Shown in pieces: positions 796 to 64,000 of a stretch of DNA of 64,000 nucleotides. Source of the DNA: Cyanidioschyzon merolae (lineage: Eukaryota); assembly GCA_000091205.1 (NCBI GenBank), contig AP006497.2, one strand, 5' to 3'. How positions within the stretch are numbered: the stretch's first letter is position 1; each line of letters opens with the position of its first letter. The translations under genes and the position numbers were made by a program. The notes below the pieces were generated by a model. That model was not told where the DNA came from and searched no databases. It saw only the letters and a program-made list of their open reading frames with translations.

Positions 796-2152
796 CGAAA
801 ACGGGCTCACACACGACACTTTGGGTCACTTGCCAGAGCAATCAGCACCGGCCTCTGCGACGTATTTCTCTGGTGGCTTGCTTTCCCTCCATCTGATCTC
901 CAGCTTCAAATACACCGGTCGCTCGTCACGCTCCAGCTCCATGCACAGCAGTCGACGGTTGTCGATGGCAGCGTTCAAGACCCGATCTCGCTGGCTGCAG
1001 CTGTTGTTTACGCATTTCATGCCGAGGCAAAGGTCGCGATCTGCGCCTCGCTTGCCAGGCTCCTCCTCTATGTGTACGGCGTCCGCGCGCCCCGAACAGC
1101 CACGACACGTGGCAACGGCGAGTCGTTCCCGTAGGCACACACGACGACCCCGCCGCCGACTGCCGGCCTGCGGTGCACGACCGCCCGCTTCATCGCCCGG
1201 GACATGCCCTTGACGGGTCCGGAGAGCTCCGGTCGATGCCGGCCACGGTTTTGCCGCGCCCGATGCCCTACTCCTCGATCAAGCACGTCGTCGGGACGAC
1301 GCTTTTGCTGAATGCACTGCCCGCTGCACGCCCGAGCACACGCGCTTCCATTGGATGAGGGATCCGTGGAATGCGATGTGGTCCCATGAAGAAACAAGCA
1401 CCAGAGACAGAATCCTGGCTCGGGAACGGGTCGAGGGATTTCCACTCGCCGACGCTGCCGTTGTGCGAAACGGCTAGGCATGCTGGAATGGACACGATCG
1501 CTGCGATAGTTCAGGCCAGAGTGCAGCACCCGTTTCGGTGCGAGCGGCACCGCCGGGAGCCTGCTGGAGCGTATCCCGCGAGACGTATCCTGTTGCTGTC
1601 GAATGCAGCTTCATCGATAGTCGGGAAGACAGCAGGGTTTTTGTTTTGAGGGGAATCGATTCGCGAACGTTTGACGGGTCATTGGGTTTGGATGTGAGCT
1701 TTTGAATGGATCTTCAAGAAGCGACGACAAGTTTTGACCGCCGTCAACGCAGTGGCGCAGGTTGCTGTGCCCCGCCTACACGGCGTCCAGTAGGTCGATC
1801 GATGACTTGAGGAATGCGTCGTTTGCATATGCTAAACGCAGGGAGCGGAGAAACGCGAGTGCTTTTGCCCATGCATTCGATCATCATACAGGTATTTACG
1901 AATCCCAGTGTTATCGTGTGTCGCGAATTCGCTTGATCCTGGTGAAGAACCGATGTTGAGCGGCAAAGCGCCGAGGGCGTCATTCGAAGCCCTCGACCAA
2001 GCATCTTAGAACTACACATGACTCCGCAAATTCCCGGTGATGCATCTTGAATGTCGAATCTGTGCATCCTGATCAAGTTGGAATTGAATCGGAAGGCAGT
2101 AATAGGGGGCAAGCAGTTCAGTGTTCCAGTTTTATCTGACACTGCAGCCGAG
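796..2152. repeat. Left arm of a ~1.36-kb inverted repeat; pairs with 4539-5893
   Basis: The reverse complement of 796-2152 matches 4539-5893 at roughly 97-98% identity by eye. ORF-track proteins on opposite strands are near-identical: 1744..2217(-) vs 4459..4947(+), 1068..1550(-) vs 5141..5623(+), and 782..1213(+) vs the C-terminus of 5478..6536(-). The identity breakpoints 2152 and 4539 were read directly from the sequence. Confidence 0.8.
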
Positions 2153-2342
2153 CCGCGCGATGACGCACGATGCTCCAAATCGTCGCCCGCTCTACTCGTG
2201 CACTGGTGATACGACAAGAGGCGCTGAGTCGGAGACCGAGAAGCATAGCCATTGACTGCGCCTACGCAAAAACCTCTTGGGACTTTATCCTTTTCTCGAG
2301 CACCTTCCTGGAATAAAGCTGCTGTTGAACAGTTACGAAAGG

Positions 2343-4145
2343 ATGGTGGTTCTCGCGATCGCTATTTTGAACAAGCTCGGCCGGCTACTGATTTCTCGTC
2401 AGTTTCGTGAGATGCAGCGGACCCGCGTCGAAGGTCTACTCGCCGCTTTTCCGAAACTTTTGGAAAACGAGATGACACGGAGTGGGGAGAATCGCCAACA
2501 CACGTTCCTCGAGTCGGACACGGTTCGCTACGTATACCAGCCAGTGGAAAATCTCTATGTGGTGTTAATCACGAACAAGACGAGCAATATCGTCCAAGAT
2601 CTTGAGACGCTTCGTTTGGTCAGCAAGTTGCTCGCAGAGCTCAGCCCGATCGTGGGAGTGATCGATGAAACCGCCGTATACGAAGCAGCTTTCGACTTGA
2701 TCTTTGCCTTTGATGAGGTCATCGACTGGGGCGGCTACGCAGAGGCCGTGAACGTGCCTCAGATTCGTCAGTATCTCGAAATGTATAGCCACGAGGAGCG
2801 CTTAGCAAAAATGATCAAAGAGAGCAAAATGCATGAGGCGAAAGAGGAGATGCGTCGAAAGGCGAATCTCATTGAGAAACAGAAGCAAGACCTTGCGAAA
2901 CTGCCGCCCGAGATACGACGCCTCATGGGCCTTGAAGGGAGCTCAGTTTCGGCAGGCTCTGGCGCGCCTGCAGTGTCTACCGGTGCGTATTCAACGGGGA
3001 ATATGCGAGGATTCGGGCCCCAAGACTTTTCTGGTGCTCTCGGAGGCAGCACTCTGCTTGGCGATGTTGGACCTGCTCCGTCCTTGACGCTGGGCGCCAC
3101 CAGAATAGCAGCGGACCAGTCGGCAAGCATCACGGTTTCAGCCGGAGGCCGGGGTCTGTCTCTCGGGAAGCCAAAGGCTCGCACCGAGGACTGGATGGCG
3201 CACCTGCATGCTGAGAGTGAAACATCTTCCGCAGATGCGCAACGCTCGCGCGTTACTCCCGATCATACGGAGCCTACAGCGTCGCAACGAGCTGCGAAGA
3301 CAGTCCCGTCCGAATCCGCCACTCGAGCGGTTGCAACATCTTCAATCCCTGCGTCTGATTTCCATCTAACGACCGAGGAGAAGCTGAGTATATCACTCAC
3401 TCGTGACGGTCGACTCGAGAGCTTTCAAGTACACGGCGAGCTTCTCCTTCAGATACGCGATCAAAAGCGGGCACACGCTCGCATCCGGCTGAAACCGCTT
3501 CCGGAATCGATGATGCAAAAGGTGCAGCTGCGACTGCATCCGATGTTGGATCGTTCGCTTTGGCAACAGTCGTGGGTGCTCGCACAACGCAACGCGGAGC
3601 GCCCGTTTCCCTATGGTAGCCCGACGCCAATGAGCCTGATCAAGTGGCGTTTTCAGTCCACTGATGAGAGTCTGCTGCCTGTGCTTCTGACCTGTTGGCC
3701 AACAGTCTCCAGTGATGAGACGTCGATGACGATCGAGTATGAGATGATGTCTCGCGCATCGGTTTCCTCAGACTTGTGTCCTCCGTCATCGCTGTCTTCC
3801 GTGCAGGTGCACGTACCGTTGCCGCGAACAGCAGTACAGCCTGGATTCTTCCAGTTGACACGTGTGGACGGCCGTGCAACGCTGGATGAAGCCGCCGCTG
3901 CCGTGCTTTGGACGTTGCCTCCGCTGGAGGCGCCCTGTAGCGGTGCGCTAGAGTTTACGATTGCAGCTGTAGAAAATCCCGAGCGTATGTTTCCGATTCA
4001 AATACAGATATCGGCCACAGAGGTTTATACGAAGCTTGAAATTTTGCGGGTGGAGGTGGCGACATCCCCAGAGTCGGTGCCAACGGAGGAGACGGCGTTC
4101 ACGCAGGAGCATCGCCTGCTCACCGATCGATTCGAGATTGTATGA
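2343..4145 (+). CDS. Coatomer (COPI) delta subunit (delta-COP)
   Basis: The N-terminal longin-like region MVVLAIAILNKLGRLLISRQF...QHTFLESDTVRYVYQPVENLYVVLITNKTSNIVQDLETLRLVSKLL is colinear with metazoan and fungal delta-COP. The C-terminal mu-homology-domain-length tail is present. The track starts at TTG 2277; the first in-frame ATG is 2343 (MVVLAIA). Confidence 0.85.
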   Translation: MVVLAIAILNKLGRLLISRQFREMQRTRVEGLLAAFPKLLENEMTRSGENRQHTFLESDTVRYVYQPVENLYVVLITNKTSNIVQDLETLRLVSKLLAELSPIVGVIDETAVYEAAFDLIFAFDEVIDWGGYAEAVNVPQIRQYLEMYSHEERLAKMIKESKMHEAKEEMRRKANLIEKQKQDLAKLPPEIRRLMGLEGSSVSAGSGAPAVSTGAYSTGNMRGFGPQDFSGALGGSTLLGDVGPAPSLTLGATRIAADQSASITVSAGGRGLSLGKPKARTEDWMAHLHAESETSSADAQRSRVTPDHTEPTASQRAAKTVPSESATRAVATSSIPASDFHLTTEEKLSISLTRDGRLESFQVHGELLLQIRDQKRAHARIRLKPLPESMMQKVQLRLHPMLDRSLWQQSWVLAQRNAERPFPYGSPTPMSLIKWRFQSTDESLLPVLLTCWPTVSSDETSMTIEYEMMSRASVSSDLCPPSSLSSVQVHVPLPRTAVQPGFFQLTRVDGRATLDEAAAAVLWTLPPLEAPCSGALEFTIAAVENPERMFPIQIQISATEVYTKLEILRVEVATSPESVPTEETAFTQEHRLLTDRFEIV

Positions 4146-4538: not shown

Positions 4539-5893
4539 CTCGGCTGCAGTGTCAGATAAAACTGGAACACTGAACTGCTTGCCCCCTATTACTGCCTTCC
4601 GATTCAATTCCAACTTGATCAGGATGCACAGATTCGACATTCGAGATGCATCACCGGGAATTTCCGGAGTCATGTGTAGTTCTAAGATGCTTGGTCGAGG
4701 GCTTCGAATGACGCCCTCGGCGCTTTGCCGCTCAACATCGGTTCTTCACCAGGATCAAGCGAATTCGCGACACACGATAACACTGGGATTCGTAAATACC
4801 TGTATGATGATCGAATGCATGGGCAAAAGCACTCGCGTTTCTCCGCTCCCTGCGTTTAGCATATGCAAACGACGCATTCCTCAAGTCATCGATCGACCTA
4901 CTGGACGCCGTGTAGGCGGGGCACAGCAACCTGCGCCACTGCGTTGACGGCGGTCAAAACTTGTCGTCGCTTCTTGAAGATCCATTCAAAAGCTCACATC
5001 CAAACCCAATGACCCGTCAAACGTTCGCGAATCGATTCCCCTCAAAACAAAAACCCTGCTGTCTTCCCGACTATCGATGAAGCTGCATTCGACAGCAACA
5101 GGATACGTCTCGCGGGATACGCTCCAGCAGGCTCCCGGCGGTGCCGCTCGCACCGAAACGGGTGCTGCACTCTGGCCTGAACTATCGCAGCGATCGTGTC
5201 CATTCCAGCATGCCTAGCCGTTTCGCACAACGGCAGCGTCGGCGAGTGGAAATCCCTCGACCCGTTCCCGAGCCAGGATTCTGTCTCTGGTGCTTGTTTC
5301 TTCATGGGACCACATCGCATTCCACGGATCCCTCATCCAATGGAAGCGCGTGTGCTCGGGCGTGCAGCGGGCAGTGCATTCGGCAAAAGCGTCGTCCCGA
5401 CGACGTGCTTGATCGAGGAGTACGGCATCGGGCGCGGCAAAACCGTGGCCGGCATCGACCGGAGCTCTCCGGACCCGTCAAGGGCATGTCCCGGGCGATG
5501 AAGCGGACGGTCGTGCACCGCAGGCCGGCAGTCGGCGACGGGGTCGTCGTGTGTGCCAACGGGAACGACTCGCCGTTGCCACGTGTCGTGGCTGTTCGGG
5601 GCGCGCGGACGCCGTACACATAGAGGAGGAGCCTGGCAAGCGAGGCGCAGATCGCGACCTTTGCCTCGGCATGAAATGCGTAAACAACAGCTGCAGCCAG
5701 CGAGATCGGGTCTTGAACGCTGCCATCGACAACCGTCGACTGCTGTGCATGGAGCTGGAGCGTGACCAGCGACCGGCGTATTTGAAGCTGGAGATCAGAT
5801 GGAGGGAAAGCAAGCCACCAGAGAAATACGTCGCAGAGGCCGGTGCTGATTGCTCTGGCAAGTGACCCAAAGTGTCGTGTGTGGGCCCGTTTT
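4539..5893. repeat. Right arm of the ~1.36-kb inverted repeat; pairs with 796-2152
   Basis: See the left arm. The arm ends in ...tcatcgaaaacggg (reverse complement) exactly as the left arm begins. A 2386-bp spacer between the arms holds the delta-COP gene. Confidence 0.8.
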
Positions 5894-6237
5894 CGATCAG
5901 CCGGGATACCGTTCTTCGCTTTCCGACATTGATGTGAAAAGCGCGTACCGTTCCGTTCTTTCTTGCCCAGATATCGGTGACGATGCGTCCATAAGATGAC
6001 ACCCGTAGAGACCAGATACGATCACAATATCCGGTTGGCATGGGCCCCCACATCTCGCACAAACGCCCCCTGATGTTACTGGGTCGTTCTTTGAGCGCTG
6101 CAGCGCTGACGACCGGCTCCACCCGGAAACCGGCATTGCCTCTTTGCCGATGTTTATCGTTCGTGTGAGACGCTCTTCCAAAAAGCCGTAGGTGTTCTGG
6201 ACACGCGTCCCAGCCTAACACGCGATTTTGATAGAGA

Positions 6238-12849: not shown

Positions 12850-13260
12850 GCACCCGTCGAGGGAATGTAACGTGCGGTAAAGTAAGCGTTTGTGGGCCAC
12901 ATGGCGGAACTCGGAGGAGGACCTTTTATGGACAGATGGGAACACCTGATCACAGTCAACTGCCACCACTGCCAAGGGTTCACCGAGCATGCATACAAAG
13001 GAGATGAAAAAAAACAAGCGAAATATAGATCGCAACTTCCGCCTCTGCATGAAATGCGTTGAAAACAGATCGAAGCTACGAAAACGGAGCTTGAACGCTG
13101 ACATCAGCATCCTGCAACTGCTTATCACGAAGCGGGACGGAGACGAGCGACCAGCATATTTAAAGCCGGTGATCCGAGAGAATAAAACGAAGCAGTCATG
13201 GCAAAAGTTCGCACGAAGCTGATGATGACGACACACAGAGGAGACCCGGAACTTTAGTAT
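12850..13260. repeat. Diverged partial copy (about 65-70% nt identity) of the sequence family forming the inverted-repeat arms
   Basis: The blocks catgaaatgcg, cttgaacgctg and gagcgaccagcatatttaaagcc align with right-arm 5640-5800. Translated similarity appears in both strands' frames (FKYAGRSS...LMSAFK...HFM vs FKYTGRSS...SMAAFK...HFM, and CMKCVEN...DERPAYLKP vs GMKCVNN...DERPVYLKL). The boundaries are approximate. Confidence 0.5.
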
Positions 13261-17411: not shown

Positions 17412-17696
17412 TTTTTCTCGATTTCACGAGATGTTGACATAGGCCAGCGTTCCTCGACGGTGCGCCTGATATCAGCGCGCGGTAAAGCATCCATTGATCC
17501 AACTACTTCCAGGTTCAATATTCTATACTTCATCTCGGATATACTAGTCGTCTCATACGTACTATCGTGTGCCGCGTGCCTGGCGTAATCGTCCGCGATA
17601 TAGCGCCCGTACCGTCGGTGCGGATGCAGCACGGAGACAGAACGACTCTGGCGCGCCCCAGAGTGCGTCAGCTCGAGCGCGTAAACTGATACCCAC

Positions 17697-18053
17697 TCAC
17701 TGGCGCTTCTCCGGTTTTGTTGACCCGCAGACTGCAGTCGGTTTCAGTTTGTCCTGGCAAACTTCGAGACTGGAAGGCTGCCCCACGAAGATGGCTAGCA
17801 TCAGCTCCGCAGGTCTTTTCTTCAGCACTGCACATCGCCTGATATTGATGGCGGTATTAAAGCCCCGGCTAGAGAATTCCATGTGTTGATTGTCGCTGGT
17901 GGAACTCATGAATGCGAGAATTGCGAGAACTCGTGCCCGCTGTGCCGTTTTCTGCTCTGTAAGCGCCACCTGCTTTTCTATCGTTGAGGCACTCCGCTGG
18001 CTTTTCTCCATCTCGAATTTCTGAAGTGTGCGCCCCAGCTCATCCCTCGGATT
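17697..18053 (-). pseudogene. Decayed 3'-terminal relic of a TnpB/Fanzor-like (RuvC-III region) gene
   Basis: Minus-strand translation DELGRTLQKFEMEKSQRSAS...RVLAILAFMSSTSDNQHMEFSSRGFNTAINIRRCAVLKKRPAELMLAIFVGQ...KLKPTAVCGS aligns residue by residue with the C-terminus of the 38590-40557 element: HELGCTLQRVEIEKCQRGPE...RELLALVYTTSDGKKRMEFVNRDLNAAINIRRSAVMGKRPPELTGENFVGQ...KMKPVVGGQS. The catalytic Asp of RD.NAA.NI is Gly here. Both Cys are replaced (C->R, C->S). An in-frame stop lies at 18054. Confidence 0.55.
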
Positions 18054-27894: not shown

Positions 27895-29699
27895 CTACAC
27901 GAGCATACGCGCTTTTGACCTGCATGGATCCATGCAGTACTGGATCGTCAATGATGACACGCCCTATGTTGTCCAGATAAATGCTCGAGGCCCATAAAGG
28001 CAGGCGCCTAGCCCAAGCAGGTACCGCCTGGACATGCATGCCTCGCGAATGCTTCGTGTTTGATGAGTACACAAGTGGCGTTTCGTATGCGGCAGGCAGG
28101 TCGATGCGCTCGCTAGCCGCGGACGTTGTGCCTTATCTTCCATGTGGACGGGCGTAGAGAAAACCACACCACGTATCTCGATCGAATAGCTCGAGCTGCC
28201 TGATTCTGCGTTCAGCATGTTTCCCAGATACCATGCGCGTGAAACCGGGCTCATTGCTGAGTCCCATATGTGCTGTGCACCCGATCATGGGAGAATCCGC
28301 GCTGCGCAAAAAACTAGCCACAGTGCTTGTACGACCGCGGTGATCGAGCTTGCGCGTCATTCTCTTTCGGGGCTGGGTGATTTTGATCCATATCACCAGC
28401 GACTCGGGCACCGTTATGTGCGTAGGCGAGCACGTGACGGAAGCGATCCAGCATCGCAGCACTCGTGACTCTGTCGCTCACGTTTCCTCCGTCGATCACG
28501 TGGCTGGGTCGATTCGCGTGTGTAGCGCTTGTCCGGCGACGATGACCGGAATCGAATGGCCAGTACGATTGCTCTGGTTCCTACTCGCCGCTTTGCACCA
28601 CACCGATATAAAGAGGGCTCATAGTGTCCGTTCTGCACATGCAGTCGCCATACTCTGGCTGTCTGATTGGTTGGTTGGCTTTACGGCTGATGCGCACGGT
28701 TCAGGCAGTTGCGGTATGCGTCCCATACGCGGACTCGACCTGCGCTTGCCCTGCCCCACCGTCAAACAAATCCACGAGCATCGCATGCCTAGCGCTGCCT
28801 GCGTAACCGGGGCTACGCTCGCGGCAACGCCCGTCGGTATTTCGCATCAGGAGGCCTCCGGTGTGAAGGGCACGCGATTTCACCCCTGAATCCGATCCGG
28901 ATCCAATGTGGTACATTCGCGAGCGATACCATCCAAACAGCAAGGGAGATTGACTACATGGGATCATGCGTGCGTGGAATCCTCGGGATGCAGCAGCTGG
29001 CGTCGCGGCAACGTCCCGTTCAGCTCCAATGCAGTGCAGACGTAGCGCTGAAAGAGGCATGCCTTCGGCGAAGTCTGCTTCACCAATGCTGCGATCGCAT
29101 GTGATGAACGGGATCACTCTAGCACACGCGATGATGACTTCCTCGTACTACGCGCAACAGCAGTGACACAGGCCTGCGTTGATGACTCCAAAACACCGCT
29201 GAGAGCGCTGGAAGAACGCATGATCATGAGACGGCCATACAGATGACCCTTGTTTGACGGCAACAGGCTTCCTTTCAAAGCCATCCGTGCAATGAAACAA
29301 AATAGGATCTCTGACATGGTTTGACCCCAAACGAAGTCACCCAGAACCTCCAGTGAGGCATCGGTGTCGCGGTGCACAGCACACGCGTTGCATGTCGCAC
29401 TTTTCGGATAACGGGGTTTATCAATATTTGCGCATGATTCGCTGCACTGTATCCAGTGCTTCACATATGGATCATGCGCGCGTTCAGCGGAGAACCCGCC
29501 ATGATGGAAAAATTCCGTGAGTGCCGCACCTGGAATCCGTTTCGATATCCTCTGAAAACTTAGCCTCGTGCTCTGCACATAAAACTTAGGATGCATGGTC
29601 ATAAGCACGCATGCTAGGCTAGTCAGTAAAACAAAAAAAAAGTTTAACGTCCATGGACTAGAAGTATATCTACCCAATGCAGACGCCTCCCAGCCTTTT

Positions 29700-29850
29700 C
29701 TGACTTCCAGAATGCTATCGATTTCAGTTTCTGCTTGTACACTTCGAGCATCAGACGCTACCTCACAAGCTTCGATCGCGTCAGCTCTGCAGGTTTCCTC
29801 TTCAATACTCCACATTTCCTGATATTGATGGTAGCGGGAAGTCTTGGCAC
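29700..29850 (-). pseudogene. Second decayed relic of the TnpB/Fanzor-like family (RuvC-III tail)
   Basis: Minus-strand translation ...TDVVRVPRLPATINIRKCGVLKRKPAELTRSKLVR*RLMLEVYKQKLKSIAFWKS aligns with NRDLNAAINIRRSAVMGKRPPELTGENFVGQRLMVELYRMKMKPVVGGQS of the full copies. There is an in-frame stop, an upstream TAA, and the RD of the motif is lost. Confidence 0.45.
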
Positions 29851-30478
29851 ACGAACGACATCCGTTTATTGCCGCTGTTTGAACACATTAATCCAAGGTT
29901 CCTCGAACTCGTGCCCCGTTTACCACGAAACTCTCGTCGTCGTCTCGACGTGCGAACACTTTTTCTCGCCCATAGCCGCTATGTTTCTTCTCCTTCGTCA
30001 TTTGCGCTTCTTCGCTCGATGATAGGCAACAAGCGGATTTTTCTTTTTTTCAGGCACACGGCGACACCAAGCCCGCAGGCTCTCCGCCTTCCATGCCCAC
30101 ACCGTCGCCTTGGGTTCTGTACTTTAGAGACTTAGCGCACTTGGAACGCTTCTCCTATAAATTGCGAGAAAGCGTTGCAACGCAGGCATCCACGCGCGTG
30201 GAACCCAGCCGTGCTGAAATCGAGTGTTGCGCGTGACGGCGAACGCACGCCATGCGATGCTGCTGCTGCTGCTGCTGCACCGGTAATCTCGTACGCGACG
30301 CTAGTTTCTACGAACCAACGCGATATTCTGCTGCGCTGTTGGTTTTGGTTGCAGTTTCGTTACGTATTTTTGAGCTAGATCGAGTTTGGTTGCACCTGAA
30401 CCTCACGTCGTGATACCCTGAGCGCCGTCCGTGGTGTCCTAGGGAGAGGCCTCTCGGATTCCGTGGCTTTCACACGCC

Positions 30479-38091: not shown

Positions 38092-38589
38092 ATTTAACGC
38101 ACGGTGGAATGTTTACCAGACCCTACGCTGGACGGAAGAAGCGTTCAGGTTGTGAAGCGTACACTACTTCTCTTCGTCAAACGTGTCTACTATGCGCAAG
38201 CCTCTGCACACGTGACAAGATGCTACGAGTTACTATACGCTCCAGGGAACGCTGAACTAGAAAATATCAAAACCAGACGCCAAGCCACAGCAATGCTATG
38301 CGCTCGTAGCAAAAGAGCGCGATAGGTTGTAAAGTGACCCGGAGATCAGTTCGACGAGGGCATGCGGCGGTGCAGTCGCACCTGCGCGTATCAGCGACGG
38401 CAGGAACGGCGGCGACGATCAGAAAACGACCGATGCAGAAGCGTTGAGGGCCGCATTGCGCAGCGCCCCGGATGGTGACCTGAAGCGTTCCTCCGGAGGT
38501 GCAGGGAAATCAGTGGAATAAAATGGATATTTATGGATAGAGTGCGTCGGGATCTGATTCTTATCTTCACGAAACGATGACATCGGGAC

Positions 38590-40557
38590 CATGGATCCCC
38601 GAATTCGGAATCTATGATGGCTTTCGGGAAAGCGTCCACCATGAAGCACTTTCCTTCAAGTTCCATTACCCATACTTGCTTTCGGATAAACAGGTCTTTT
38701 CATAGGTTCCATCCAGCGGCGAATGGCTGCCTTGAGCACTCGCCGTAGCGCCTGCACCGCTCAAGCAGATGCTGCATAGAGAGTCAGAGGGGCTCTGCAA
38801 TACCACAGAGGGCGTCGGCTCGAGGCGTCATTCATTCAACCTCGACTCGACATTCATAATGAAACTGGGAGCCTGCAAGCGCTGCTGACAGACCTACTGT
38901 CTGCGGCAGCGCGAAGCAACAGACTAGGAGTCCACTGCGACCAGGGCGACGCCCAGACGCAGTAAAGCGGCGTCTAGACCCAGAATGAACTGCGTTGCGG
39001 AAGAGTTGAACAGGTCTCACGAAAGCACCTGCCACTGGAGGAAGCATAAAGCGCGACCCGGGCAGACTCGTCCAGGTCGCGGGACCTTCCGCCTAGGGGG
39101 TAAGCTTTTGACGGCATCGGAAACTTTCCCCTCGTTTCACGTCTATCGTAAAGCGGGGAAGGAATCGTTATCTCGTTGCAATGTAGTGGTACGTTGCTGT
39201 TATTTTGTCTATACGGCGCTCGACAGGCGCACCTGGAATATCTGGCGGTCACGAGACAAGACGGATATCTCGCCGTTGAAGGGAAACCCGATCGTGATCA
39301 TTTGCGTGTTGCTCTGACGTACATGTTGTGTTTGCGTTACAGTCGTGCCAAAGTACAGTATTTCATCTCGATGGTGTTTCGACCATCAAGCAACGATATT
39401 CCGGTAGTTTTCGCGCAGTTTGTATCAGAAGCGTTCAAAAAGCGTTCTTTTTCAAAAAAACAAAAAAGGAAAGTTTTGGAGAGGCAAGTCGTCGATCCCA
39501 GAGGCCAAGTGTCACCGGATGCCGGAAAAAGCGGAGAGCACTGCCGAGCCCAGAAGCACTGGAGAGGACCGCGACGCGGAAAGTGCATGAGAACGACTTG
39601 GTCGTTGGTGCAGACGCCGGACACACGAAGATCCGTAGCCATCGCGGTTCGCGAGTGTGCGGAAGATGGCATGGACGGTAACCTACGTCCGAAAGACATG
39701 CGGCTTTTGAGCTTCTCGAGAGCGAGATGCTATCGAGAATCTGGAATCATGAATGCAAGGACAAAAATCGAGACGTGGAACGCAGGAATGAAGGATCACG
39801 TGGAAGCTTCGAGCGATGTGACGAGCCGAGGAGCAGACTTTCAAACTTTTCTGAAATGCATGGAAGTTCGCGTCGCTGACTGGGAGGCGCTGTGGAAAGC
39901 GTATCCAAAGCCCCGGTGGGCTCGTCTGCGTATGCGTCTATACTGTGGGAAGCAGCGCGCATTCGCCAATTTTTTCAATCCACTGAACGCCTTGAAGGAG
40001 GACGAGGGTCAGAGGCTCCTAGTAGCGTACGGAGCAGGGCGCTGGATGACCCAAAACAGGATATACGCCAGCTCCAACAACAAGAACGTACAAGGAGCGC
40101 GCACGGCGTTTTGTCACCATACCGATAGATGCGTTCCGAACATCGTACACACACCATGAGCTGGGCTGCACGCTTCAGAGGGTCGAGATAGAAAAGTGCC
40201 AGCGGGGCCCTGAGCATTTAAAAAAGTACGGAGCGCCGACGGAAGAGCAAATGGAAAGGAGGGCAAAAGTGCGAGAGCTACTCGCATTAGTATATACAAC
40301 CAGTGATGGCAAGAAACGTATGGAATTCGTGAACCGAGACTTGAACGCCGCTATCAATATTCGGAGAAGTGCGGTGATGGGGAAAAGACCTCCAGAGTTG
40401 ACAGGAGAGAATTTTGTGGGGCAGCGTCTCATGGTCGAATTGTACAGAATGAAAATGAAGCCAGTTGTAGGTGGCCAGTCGAGCGAGACAGTGAGGCTTC
40501 GGCGTTTCAGTTGGAGACGTTTTGTGTAGGGCGCGTTTGCCGCCACTGCTGTATACC
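38590..40557 (+). mobile_element. Copy A of a ~1.97-kb TnpB/Fanzor-like (IS200/605-OrfB-related) element
   Basis: Near-identical to 48310-50278 at a constant offset of 9721 bp with no indels across about 1.9 kb. The edges are more diverged than the core. It encodes a RuvC-fold TnpB-like protein. No terminal inverted repeats are evident, as expected for IS200/605-type elements. Confidence 0.65.
39176..40529 (+). pseudogene. TnpB/Fanzor-like RuvC nuclease gene split across two overlapping frames (+1 shift between ~40045 and ~40105)
   Basis: Frame 1 (39176-40159) carries a RuvC-I-like AEDGMDGNL and downstream ...LLVAYGAGRW. Frame 2 (open from 40050) reads RRFVTIPIDAFRTSYTHHELGCTLQRVEIEKCQRG...MEFVNRDLNAAINIRRSAVMGKRP. 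That contains the TnpB block V.P.YTS..C, a zinc-ribbon-like region and the RuvC-III hallmark RD.NAA.NI. A frameshift (or recoding) is needed to join the two frames. Confidence 0.6.
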
Positions 40558-41175
40558 GCTGCGCCACCGTGTTCCCATGGAAGAGAAATTTCGAAAACTT
40601 GAAGACTGCGTGACTGGGAGCTTCTGCACACGAATTCGAGAGTATATCATTTGCTCTCCGATGCCTTGTTCGACGGCGTCGCGAATCTTCATGTTTCCCG
40701 TGGCGTATCGAACTGCAGCGGTAAAGATCCCAGGTATCCATTCCGAAAACCCGACCGAGAATCCTAAAACTACCTTTGAGTTCTCAAGTCCGTCTCTTTA
40801 TATTTCGAATGTCGACTTTGGAAATCACGGAATAAAACATTCAGAAAAAAATGCAAAGCCACGAACACAGTGCGAGCATCTCCCAATCCACTTGTAATCC
40901 AGGATTGGCGTGGTATCATCTGCGCGCTGTTGATGCAGCACTAGCACCAATACGCTGGTCTCTCAGGAACTCAAGTCGGTTGGGTCCTAAAAACCACCAG
41001 CGTGGGAGGAATTTTCATCTGTCCGTGCTAACCGCTTGGCTGTTTCTTTGAACCAGTGGCGGGAAGCAAGGCTCGGTTCACTAGGACGAGTCTAGCGGAG
41101 CGTTACGGTGCTGATCGAAAGGCCGTGCCGCTCTACCGCCGAGCACTCCGAGTTCATGTGGCTGGCTCTTTCGAC

Positions 41176-47931: not shown

Positions 47932-48309
47932 CCACGAGCAGTGCGAAAGGGCAAGTACTCGGAGCCTGGAAACACAGCGTCAGTGCCAGTTCGAGACTGA
48001 GCGACCTGCGTCCGTCTTGGTAGAGGTTTTCAACTTGGCAGGCTCGCGAAGCCGACTTTTCGGTTAAGGGACGCACTGTTGCTGCTCTTTAATCCTAACG
48101 AGAGCTTGCCTCTTCAGCAGAGACTACCGCGTTCCAATAGCCCCGCAGTAAAGTTCGTGAAGAGAATAGAGTCTGGTTTTTCACGCGGCTCTGCGGGGGT
48201 AGCGTCTACCGCTGGTGTTTTAAGAAAAAGCGGTACGATGTGTGGTTTTGGAGCAAAAGAGCATCGCGCAGCGTAGATATGTCCTCGATGACAGAACGTC
48301 TCCATTGAT

Positions 48310-50278
48310 CAGGGATCCCAGATTGCGGGATGGATTTCGGCAAGCGGGAAAGTGTTTATGAAACTGTACCCTACCTTCAAGTTCCATTACCCATACTTGC
48401 TTTCGGATATACAGGTCTTTTCATAGGTTCCATCCAGCGGCGAATGGCTGCCTTGAGCACTCGCCGTAGCGCCTGCACCGCTCAAGCAGATGCTGCATAG
48501 AGAGTCAGAGGGGCTCTGCAATACCACAGAGGGCGTCGGCTCGAGGCGTCATTCATTCAACCTCGACTCGAGATTCGTAATGAAACTGGGAGCCTGCAAG
48601 CGCTGCTGGCAGACCTACTGTCTGCGGCAGCGCGAAGCAACAGACTAGGAGTCCACTGCGACCAGGGCGACGCCCAGACGCAGTAAAGCGGCGTCTAGAC
48701 CCAGAATGAACTGCGTTGCGGAAGAGTTGAACAGGTCTCACGAAAGCACCTGCCACTGGAGGAAGCATAAAGCGCGACCCGGGCAGACTCGTCCAGGTCG
48801 CGGGACCTTCCGCCTAGGGGGTAAGCTTTTGACGGCATCGGAAACTTTCCCCTCGTTTCACGTCTATCGTAAAGCGGGGAAGGAATCGTTATCTCGTTGC
48901 TATGTAGTGGTACGTTGCTGTTATTTTGTCTATACGGCGCTCGACAGGCGCACCTGGAATATCTGGCGGTCACGAGACAAGACGGATATCTCGCCGTTGA
49001 AGGGAAACCCGATCGTGATCATTTGCGTGTTGCTCTGACGTACAAGTTGTGTTTGCGTTACAGTCGTGCCAAAGTACAGTGTTTCATCTCGATGGTGTTT
49101 CGACCATCAAGCAACGATATTCCGGTAGTTTTCGCGCAGTTTGTATCAGAAGCGTTCAAAAAGCGTTCTTTTTCAAAAAAACAAAAAAGGAAAGTTTTGG
49201 AGAGGCAAGTCGACGATCCCAGAGGCCAAGTGTCACCGGATGCCGGAAAAAGCGGAGAGCACTGCCGAGCCCAGAAGCACTGGAGAGGAGTGCGACGCGG
49301 AAAGTGCATGAGAACGACTTGGTCGTTGGTGCAGACGCCGGAAACACGAAGATCAGGAACCATCGCCGTGCGCGAGTGTGCGGAAGATGGCGTGGACGGT
49401 AACCTACGTCCGAAAGACATGCGGCTTTTGAGCTTCTCGAGAGCGAGATGCTATCGAGAATCTGGAATCATGAATGCAAGGACAAAAATCGAGACGTGGA
49501 ACGCAGGAATGAAGGATCACGTGGAAGCTTCGAGCGATGTGACGAGCCGAGGAGCAGACTTTCAAACTTTTCTGAAATGCATGGAAGTTCGCGTCGCTGA
49601 CTGGGAGGCGCTGTGGAAAGCGTATCCAAAGCCCCGGTGGGCTCGTCTGCGTATGCGTCTATACTGTGGGAAGCAGCGCGCATTCGCCAATTTTTTCAAT
49701 CCACTGAACGCCTTGAAGGAGGACGAGGGTCAGAGGCTCCTAGTAGCGTACGGAGCAGGGCGCTGGATGACCCAAAACAGGATATACGCCAGCTCCAACA
49801 ACAAGAACGTACAAGGAGCGCGCACGGCGTTTTGTCACCATACCGATAGATGCGTTCCGAACATCGTACACACACCATGAGCTGGGCTGCACGCTTCAGA
49901 GGGTCGAGATAGAAAAGTGCCAGCGGGGCCCTGAGCATTTAAAAAAGTACGGAGCGCCGACGGAAGAGCAAATGGAAAGGAGGGCAAAAGTGCGAGAGCT
50001 ACTCGCATTAGTATATACAACCAGTGATGGCAAGAAACGTATGGAATTCGTGAACCGAGACTTGAACGCCGCTATCAATATTCGGAGAAGTGCGGTGATG
50101 GGGAAAAGACCTCCAGAGTTGACAGGAGAGAATTTTGTGGGGCAGCGTCTCATGGTCGAATTGTACAGAATGAAAATGAAGCCAGTTGTAGGTGGCCAGT
50201 CGAGCGAGACAGTGAGGCTTCGGCGTTTCAGTTGGAGACGTTTTGTGTAGGGCGCGTTTGCCGCCACTGCTGTGCACC
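48310..50278 (+). mobile_element. Copy B of the ~1.97-kb TnpB/Fanzor-like element
   Basis: See copy A. It has the same two-frame gene structure and the same frameshift. About 12 substitutions relative to A cluster in 39176-39700/48897-49421, and most are non-synonymous. Confidence 0.65.
48897..50250 (+). pseudogene. TnpB/Fanzor-like RuvC nuclease gene, copy B, with the same +1 frame split
   Basis: The 327-aa frame-1 ORF differs from A at about 9 residues (for example GVDGNL vs GMDGNL). The frame-2 C-terminal part, including NRDLNAAINIRR, is identical to A. Confidence 0.6.
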
Positions 50279-50328
50279 GCTGACGACTGCTTTCGACTTT
50301 TGAAAGGCGTTTGCTAGCGGTGTAAGCG

Positions 50329-63472: not shown

Positions 63473-64000
63473 AGAGAGAGGCTGGGAATCTTTGATGATG
63501 CGACTGGTAGCAGCTTTGAGGAAAGCATTCACCGTTCCACGCCTTAGTCGTCAGAATTCCAACACCCTTGCTTTCCCGCGGAGATACTGGTTATTCCTCG
63601 TGTTCGCTCGAGCGCCAAGTGCATCGATTGCGCGTCCACAGTGACGTCTGTAGCGCCGGTGCGGACACAGCACGAAACCAGAGCGGCTTTTGTCATGCCA
63701 CTGAGTATCTTGGCTCGAGACGGGCGCGTTTGTGCCGCTACGGGCGCTTTTTATTGAGCGCATCGACACCCTCCGGAAGGTTGCCGGACTGGATGCGGGA
63801 GAAGTGAAGCGCCCTAACCTTATGATCGTAAAATGATCAGAACTGTATAGATAGTGTTGCACCGCTTTCGTTCGCGAAGAGGACGCCTCCGCTGCCTGGT
63901 TTCTTATAGTTTTTCAACTCATTTATGTTCCAGTACCTCTGCGATATAGAGCAGGAGATCGAAATCCGGTTTTAATGTATCCTACAGATCGTAGACGAAT

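Follow-up and report, generated by a model that had tools for sequence, protein, structure and literature searches.

Why should two copies of a transposon gene on the same chromosome be broken at the same position and in the same way? The question is raised by a window of 64,000 nucleotides (the whole stretch of DNA analysed here, to which all positions refer), in which a preliminary description had noticed a TnpB-like ORF stopping at position 40160, with its continuation in the +1 frame and an identical arrangement in a second copy. Three explanations had been put forward: descent of both copies from an already broken template (for example by segmental duplication rather than transposition), programmed recoding, or a shared assembly error. 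The arrangement itself is as described, save for one base at the end of the ORF. In the first copy (A) the frame-1 ORF (39176-40159) codes for 327 aa, has the C terminus ...CVPNIVHTP and finishes with a TGA at 40157-40159, i.e., it ends at 40159. The +1 frame is indeed open from 40050, preceded by a TGA at 40047-40049; it runs via FVTIPIDAFRTSYTHHELGC... to a TAG at 40527-40529 and translates from 40050 as PKTGYTPAPTTRTYKERARRFVTIPIDAFRTSYTHHELGC..., and the two frames (0 and +1) overlap by 108 nt. In the second copy (B) the ORF occupies 48897-49880, and the frame arrangement is identical, repeated exactly 9721 bp further on in direct orientation.

When the window was compared with itself one direct repeat was found, 38653-40561 versus 48374-50282, a tract of 1909 bp with 99.0% identity (1890/1909), 19 mismatches and no gaps. 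This tract is contained within two longer elements (all element features given here are on the + strand), located by blastn to a published consensus at 38569-40588 (A, whose degenerate last ~15 bp were positioned by alignment) and 48286-50309 (B, with both consensus ends complete). Both carry the same internal deletion. No duplicated host flanking sequence was found around A and B. The neighbouring long ORFs (1424, 1260 and 699 aa) are intact, and the products of two of them are known from strain 10D with exactly the same sequence, magnesium chelatase H (ChlH, 1424 aa) as BAM81565.1 and an RNA methyltransferase (699 aa) as BAM81567.1; these identical flanking proteins place the locus in the genome of Cyanidioschyzon merolae 10D.

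The consensus is that of CMe-1A, one Fanzor1 family described in the C. merolae genome (Bao and Jurka, 2013, Mob DNA 4:12; PMC3627910). According to these authors the family has ~150 copies, each ~80% identical to a ~3-kb consensus and without terminal inverted repeats, and some copies are still intact; its 5' 635 bp are common with TE-N2_CMe, a 635-bp derivative present in ~70 copies (PMC3627910). The supplementary consensus is 3169 bp long, with an ORF at 906-3110 coding for the 734-aa CMe-1 protein (PMC3627910). In blastn, consensus positions 6-1000 matched 38569-39569 (79%) and 2154-3155 matched 39571-40573 (85%) in copy A, and positions 1-999 and 2153-3169 matched 48286-49289 and 49291-50309 in copy B, with an overall identity of 79-85% for both copies. 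Hence A and B belong to CMe-1A by DNA homology that includes both termini, and they share with it the host genome, this level of identity across both ends and the lack of terminal inverted repeats; what remains of their ORF corresponds in order to CMe-1 codons 1-31 and 417-734. The family is an old one. A and B differ from typical members in lacking an internal segment of ~1.15 kb, a start codon and an invariant Glu, in carrying three 1-nt indels and in the 99% mutual identity of their interiors.

Sequence searches gave little to assign the protein itself. A Pfam scan of the remnant produced a sub-threshold hit to PF07282 (E=0.0093; 16.5 bits, where the cut-off is 26.3; 11 residues matched, on NRDLNAAINI), the scan of 13 full-length relatives gave no match, and sequence and profile searches of the PDB returned nothing relevant. 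Fanzor1 membership is shown instead by the fold and by the published consensus. A profile search against 1.84 billion representatives retrieved 1764 relatives, and an AlphaFold (AF2) model was built for the closest family representative (P0151) on 58 sequences, with pLDDT 87.9 and pTM 0.86. The best structural matches of this model were the Fanzor1 nucleases SpuFz, GtFz and PpFz (E 1e-15 to 1e-16, TM 0.53-0.74), followed by Cas12 and TnpB. The family is thus predicted to adopt the Fanzor/TnpB fold (WED/REC plus a split RuvC), a fold that the A and B remnants would not form. Along the 58-sequence alignment three acidic residues are invariant or nearly so: Asp in the RuvC-I motif GxDPG, Glu in (D/E)EF(R)T and Asp in the RuvC-III motif NRDxNAA. 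At the canonical RuvC-II position this family has a Gly (AFGAG), and the conserved Glu is found 33 residues downstream. Such a rearranged catalytic site is known in Fanzors, in which the alternative Glu is essential, the E467A mutant of ApmFNuc being inactive (PMC10530073). The model matches SpuFz (8GKH/9CEU), GtFz (9CER) and PpFz (9CF0) over the full length and shares with them the rearranged RuvC site (PMC10530073), but the sequence identity to these solved nucleases is only 13-16% and most of the zinc-ribbon cysteines are missing from the C. merolae family. A and B depart further from them, keeping only the RuvC-containing C-terminal ~318 codons, split over three frames.

To locate the break we relied on a comparison set of at least 75 non-redundant family copies from metagenome contigs, among the matches listed. 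The change of frame corresponds to a single inserted nucleotide, the C in CCCAAAA[C]AGGA, at 40057 in A and 49778 in B, where the other listed copies have a gap (75/75). All 75 of the listed copies read CCCAAAA-AGGGAC at this site, A and B read CCCAAAACAGGATA instead, and the published consensus, CCCAAAAAGGGA, is also without the extra base. At the protein level, the joined conceptual product used as query in a homology search retrieved 159 proteins, ~70-75% identical, from hot-spring-type metagenomes, and in all 13 of the 13 aligned homologous proteins the region is read in a single frame (...LVVAYGAGRWxxQKGTTPAPTTRTYKECARRFVTIPVDEFRTSYTHHELGC...). An intron as the source of the frame change was considered and rejected, since the homology of the protein runs through the site unbroken, with exactly one nucleotide extra. 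The matches listed in the metagenome scan were family members only ~70% identical, and an exact-protein look-up with the 92-aa C-terminal ORF matched one short contig. Given that A and B are 99% identical, a break common to both is to be expected and is no independent coincidence. We are almost certain that the frame break is an inherited pseudogene lesion; very probably it is a private, fixed 1-nt insertion in a dead Fanzor1 remnant of the CMe-1A family in C. merolae 10D.

The break is not the only damage, and here the preliminary description, right about the break being real, had overlooked the remaining lesions. A second shared 1-nt insertion lies just 3' of the RuvC-I motif (39634 in A, 49355 in B) and is again a gap in 75/75 other listed copies. 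A 1-nt deletion, also shared, has shortened an A-run (39521-39525, GGAAAAAAACG in the consensus, GGAAAAAGCG here, from the alignment to the consensus and 41 family copies); its placement near 39523 is approximate because the length of this run varies across the family. The start codon (39476-39478) has been lost in both copies, the ATG of the consensus and of most family copies being TTG. The junction of the internal deletion is found at 39569-39571, where ~1.15 kb have gone (consensus ~1001-2152, i.e., ~codons 32-416 of 734); the two blocks of homology are separated, in full-length relatives found on metagenome contigs, by 1.1-1.2 kb that code for the N-terminal part of the protein. As for the catalytic residues, the RuvC-I Asp codon (GAC in GADAG, 39613-39615) is kept but out of frame with the adjoining segments, and the RuvC-III Asp codon (GAC, NRDLNAAINI, 40338-40340) is retained. 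The alternative RuvC-II Glu has become Ala in both (GAG to GCG, DEF to DAF, at 40131-40133 in A and 49852-49854 in B, from the alignment of copies). GAG is present at this site in 67 of the 77 aligned copies (the 75 listed family copies plus A and B), and the Glu is invariant across 58 diverse relatives. All of these lesions are common to A and B and none characterises the family, amounting to the loss of ~385 codons, the start codon and the alternative Glu, plus three 1-nt indels.

The ancestral reading frame can be followed through this damage. It starts in frame 1 (39476 to ~39522), passes to frame 0 (~39523 to 39633, spanning the deletion junction and the RuvC-I motif), returns to frame 1 (39635-40056) and continues in frame 2 (40058-40529) to the ancestral Fanzor1 stop, the TAG at 40527-40529. 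The -1 shift near 39523 is cancelled by the +1 shift at 39634, which is why the long frame-1 ORF survives. Neither copy has an intact 734-aa Fanzor1 ORF (deletion, ATG to TTG, three indels), and judged from its sequence the remnant codes for no functional nuclease, and nothing is recoded. The stretch 39340-39400, considered as possibly coding for residues ~245-275 of the protein, was rejected as such and belongs to the 5' non-coding region of the element. Just 10 of the 75 other listed copies have no frameshift or stop within their last 300 codons, so that decay is the norm in this family. A and B are ordinary pseudogene copies of an already described transposon family.

Against this background, the proposal that programmed +1 ribosomal frameshifting fuses the two frames into a functional Fanzor is vanishingly improbable. 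The overlap of the 0 and +1 frames and the lack of in-frame stops after frame correction would be compatible with it, and AAC AGG A (like ATC AGG A, at the other insertion site of B) superficially resembles the hungry-codon motif of Ty1, CUU AGG C. Overlapping 0/+1 ORFs and an AGG at the shift point are indeed features of established programmed sites (yeast Ty1 CUU-AGG-C, antizyme, prfB). However, the A/B site is private and not conserved, the extra base being absent from every listed relative (0/75 carry it) and from the consensus, and relatives use one frame. Nor is there a slippery P-site codon; at the site CAA AAC AGG ATA, a P-site AAC (on ACA) would by codon pairing rules be unable to re-pair in +1, and the same would hold for ATC. 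No viable product could be expected either, from a gene that has lost its start codon and ~385 codons (including the N-terminal half), that has its RuvC-I motif in another frame and that has Ala in place of the invariant catalytic Glu, the very change that inactivates ApmFNuc (PMC10530073). An error of assembly or sequencing shared by both copies, such as a homopolymer miscall, is hardly more than a formal alternative. The inserted base does adjoin an A4 run, but the C interrupts the run instead of changing its length, the adjacent 1424-, 1260- and 699-aa ORFs are intact, and six metagenome contigs of the A locus, assembled independently from different samples (JGI and ENA), show the same base and no indel at either insertion site. 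These contigs are colinear over 38300-41000 and 98.6-99.3% identical, the only indel among them being one extra A in the longer A-run at 39453, in the 5' non-coding part.

The substitutions that distinguish A from B had been taken in the preliminary description as a sign of relaxed constraint, given their excess of amino-acid replacements. The list could be recovered, with 13 of the 19 mismatches inside the 327-aa ORF giving nine amino-acid changes and three silent ones. The conclusion is right for A and B, but the evidence listed for it is not valid, as it mixes non-coding positions with positions read in the wrong frame. Those at 39180, 39324 and 39360 are in the 5' non-coding region of the element, those at 39622-39638 (within a patch that extends to 39649) had been translated in frame 1 although the ancestral frame there is 0, and the ones at 39492 and 39671 are the sole ones in the ancestral codon frame. 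In the C-terminal coding remnant A and B have only seven differences, too few for a dN/dS between them. We have compared instead the frame-corrected remnant with the consensus, which gave a dN/dS of 0.27 (dS 0.42); the 318 codons of the remnant contain no in-frame stop. These figures imply that the source lineage was coding for most of the divergence, until fairly recently, in keeping with the intact CMe-1A copies mentioned by Bao and Jurka (PMC3627910), and show purifying selection on the family as a whole. A dN/dS well below 1 across many copies had been named beforehand as an argument for function; the value found here reflects the history of the family and not the present function of A or B.

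A way to understand how both copies came by the same lesions is to look at where their near-identity ends. The boundaries of the 99% tract fall inside the element on both sides, and family homology goes on beyond them, for 84-88 bp on the left in both copies, and on the right for ~27 bp in B and weakly in A. In these terminal segments, whose shortness (84-88 and ~27 bp) makes the identities imprecise, A and B are 57% identical on the left (53/93) and 48% on the right (14/29); each of them is 72-79% identical to the consensus on the left and 57-74% on the right. The similarity of the two copies before any conversion, as inferred from the termini (~50-57%), is low for homologous recombination. 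Divergent termini around a near-identical interior look like two old, independent insertions with a young interior, a pattern that neither transposition of the whole element nor segmental duplication would give, because the identity ends inside the element. The remaining A/B differences are themselves distributed in patches, with six of them clustered in 30 bp (39622-39649) and none in the 881 bp of 39672-40552 (permutation P ~1e-4 in each case).

In the reading that we favour, A and B would go back to separate, old insertions lying 9.7 kb from each other in direct orientation. Ectopic (non-allelic) gene conversion would then have overwritten the interior of one with the broken version carried by the other, or both interiors with the broken version of a third copy. 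The putative conversion tract would be 38653-40561 in A and its partner 48374-50282 in B, and conversion over this extent would account for every lesion being shared. On the pattern of identity, it is rather likelier that gene conversion spread the lesion than that another copying route did. The differences still present are patchy, which suggests repeated conversion; a third copy acting as donor, or a set of deletion derivatives all identical to one another, may lie outside the 64-kb window compared.

Two other ways of copying have to be weighed against ectopic gene conversion. Recent mobilisation in trans, with A and B as fresh insertions of one non-autonomous CMe-1A deletion derivative moved by the proteins of intact members, is an unlikely proposition. 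Family deletion derivatives with other breakpoints do exist (e.g., L054/L057 and L076/L077, from metagenome contigs), the 635-bp TE-N2_CMe has reached ~70 copies (PMC3627910), and homology to both consensus ends is kept in A and B, which resemble internally deleted non-autonomous DNA transposons such as TE-N2_CMe in having kept the ends and lost the interior and the coding capacity. But such an origin predicts ~99% identity over the entire element, and the outer 84-88 bp and ~27 bp are just 57% and 48% identical; moreover, the right-terminal hairpin has been lost in A and kept in B. It is this stopping of the near-identity short of the termini, a difference from non-autonomous derivatives, that makes recent mobilisation not the best reading for these copies. 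Segmental duplication of a 1.9-kb piece of the chromosome, the example given in the preliminary description for a common broken template, fits two direct copies on one chromosome, 9.7 kb apart, with sharp boundaries of identity. It is nevertheless very improbable, since those boundaries lie inside a transposon that extends past them to its ends, left and right, in A as well as in B, and the host flanks are not duplicated; the duplicated piece would have had to land in register inside an old copy of the same element, which is gene conversion in effect. What stands of that first explanation is the common broken template, to judge by the sharing of every lesion, and not the route.

The right end of the element deserves a comment of its own. 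A family-type terminal hairpin, read by single-sequence folding, is intact in B (50283-50309), and its equivalent in A (40562-40588) is degenerate. RNAalifold applied to the right end gave one small hairpin only, as the terminal stem occurs in two indel variants that do not align properly. We regard the terminal hairpin as a candidate conserved feature of CMe-1A and as a structural hint of a possible guide RNA (fRNA) encoded at the 3' or right end. One could imagine that the interiors of CMe-1A deletion derivatives are kept near-identical by recurrent homology-directed (homing-like) copying, possibly stimulated by Fanzor, with B-type copies that have the hairpin acting as guide-RNA donors or mobilisable partners for intact Fanzor1 genes. 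This is a highly speculative and improbable scenario; if it were true, the shared lesions would be hitch-hikers on a function at the level of RNA or of cis elements and not plain decay.

What looked like a recoding signal is then, in all likelihood, a frameshift private to two pseudogene copies of a transposon family known since 2013, and in itself it matters little. It does carry a caution for genome scans. Near-identical repeats share every lesion, so that the sharing of a lesion adds no weight to it, and substitutions have to be counted in the ancestral reading frame; in these copies that frame changes repeatedly and covers only part of the ORF originally described. There are two by-products for the biology of these elements. 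One is the candidate conserved hairpin at the right end of the CMe-1A family. The other, mildly useful, is what would be a clean local case in which ectopic gene conversion has made the interiors of two old Fanzor1 elements alike, within a eukaryotic genome that is very compact.

A terminal hairpin is conserved at the right end of the CMe-1A family, the Fanzor1 transposons of C. merolae, as seen in the right ends of loci L015-L094 on metagenome contigs. Its stem occurs in two variants, with G.U pairs present, and the median MFE over 61 copies is -16 kcal/mol. Of the two decayed copies in the window, copy B has retained this hairpin (50283-50309, MFE -16.5) and copy A has lost it, the equivalent stretch (40562-40588) having an MFE of -4.7. 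The right-end hairpins of CMe-1A are possible candidates for the Fanzor guide RNA (fRNA) or for a right-end structure. A GC/CG swap (28 vs 20 copies) is seen in a small hairpin directly 3' of the ORF stop.

Over the 1909-bp tract that A and B share almost identically, the sole indel among the six metagenome alleles of the copy A locus is one extra A, present in all six relative to strain 10D, in the A-rich run at 39453-39466 within the 5' non-coding region of the element. Six of the 19 differences between A and B are packed into 30 bp (39622-39649) around the 1-nt insertion at 39634. Here the metagenome allele L005 matches part of the A version and the other metagenome alleles match the B version. 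The cluster has the look of a polymorphism in the population, left by either a short conversion patch or a multi-nucleotide event.

Directly upstream of the RuvC-I motif, the family proteins carry tandem repeats of ~22 aa (KDEEKKEADPATQEVEDNDLVV), from 1 to 6 per protein (P0002, P0003, P0019 and others; loci L015 and L048), the end of each mimicking the start of the motif. The 3' breakpoint of the internal deletion in A and B falls within this repeat zone.

Near the start of the window, an inverted repeat of 1359 bp with 99.3% identity (794-2152 and 4539-5897) is possibly a further pair of young copies, produced by duplication or by conversion. No coding capacity is obvious in the repeat, an intact 622-aa ORF (2277-4145) lies between its arms, and a weak match is found at 13027-13177.

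The window holds five additional CMe-1A fragments, far more diverged than A and B (69-77% identity to the consensus), at 17480-17677 and 63557-63719 on the plus strand and at 17775-18043, 29678-29909 and 30038-30171 on the minus strand; the stretch 29678-30171 is a further remnant with an internal deletion. Elsewhere, the second copies at L054/L057 and the copies at L076/L077 are internally deleted derivatives with breakpoints unlike those of A and B, ~550 bp of the 5' part being fused to ~900 bp of the 3' part. Deletion derivatives are common in the CMe-1A family.
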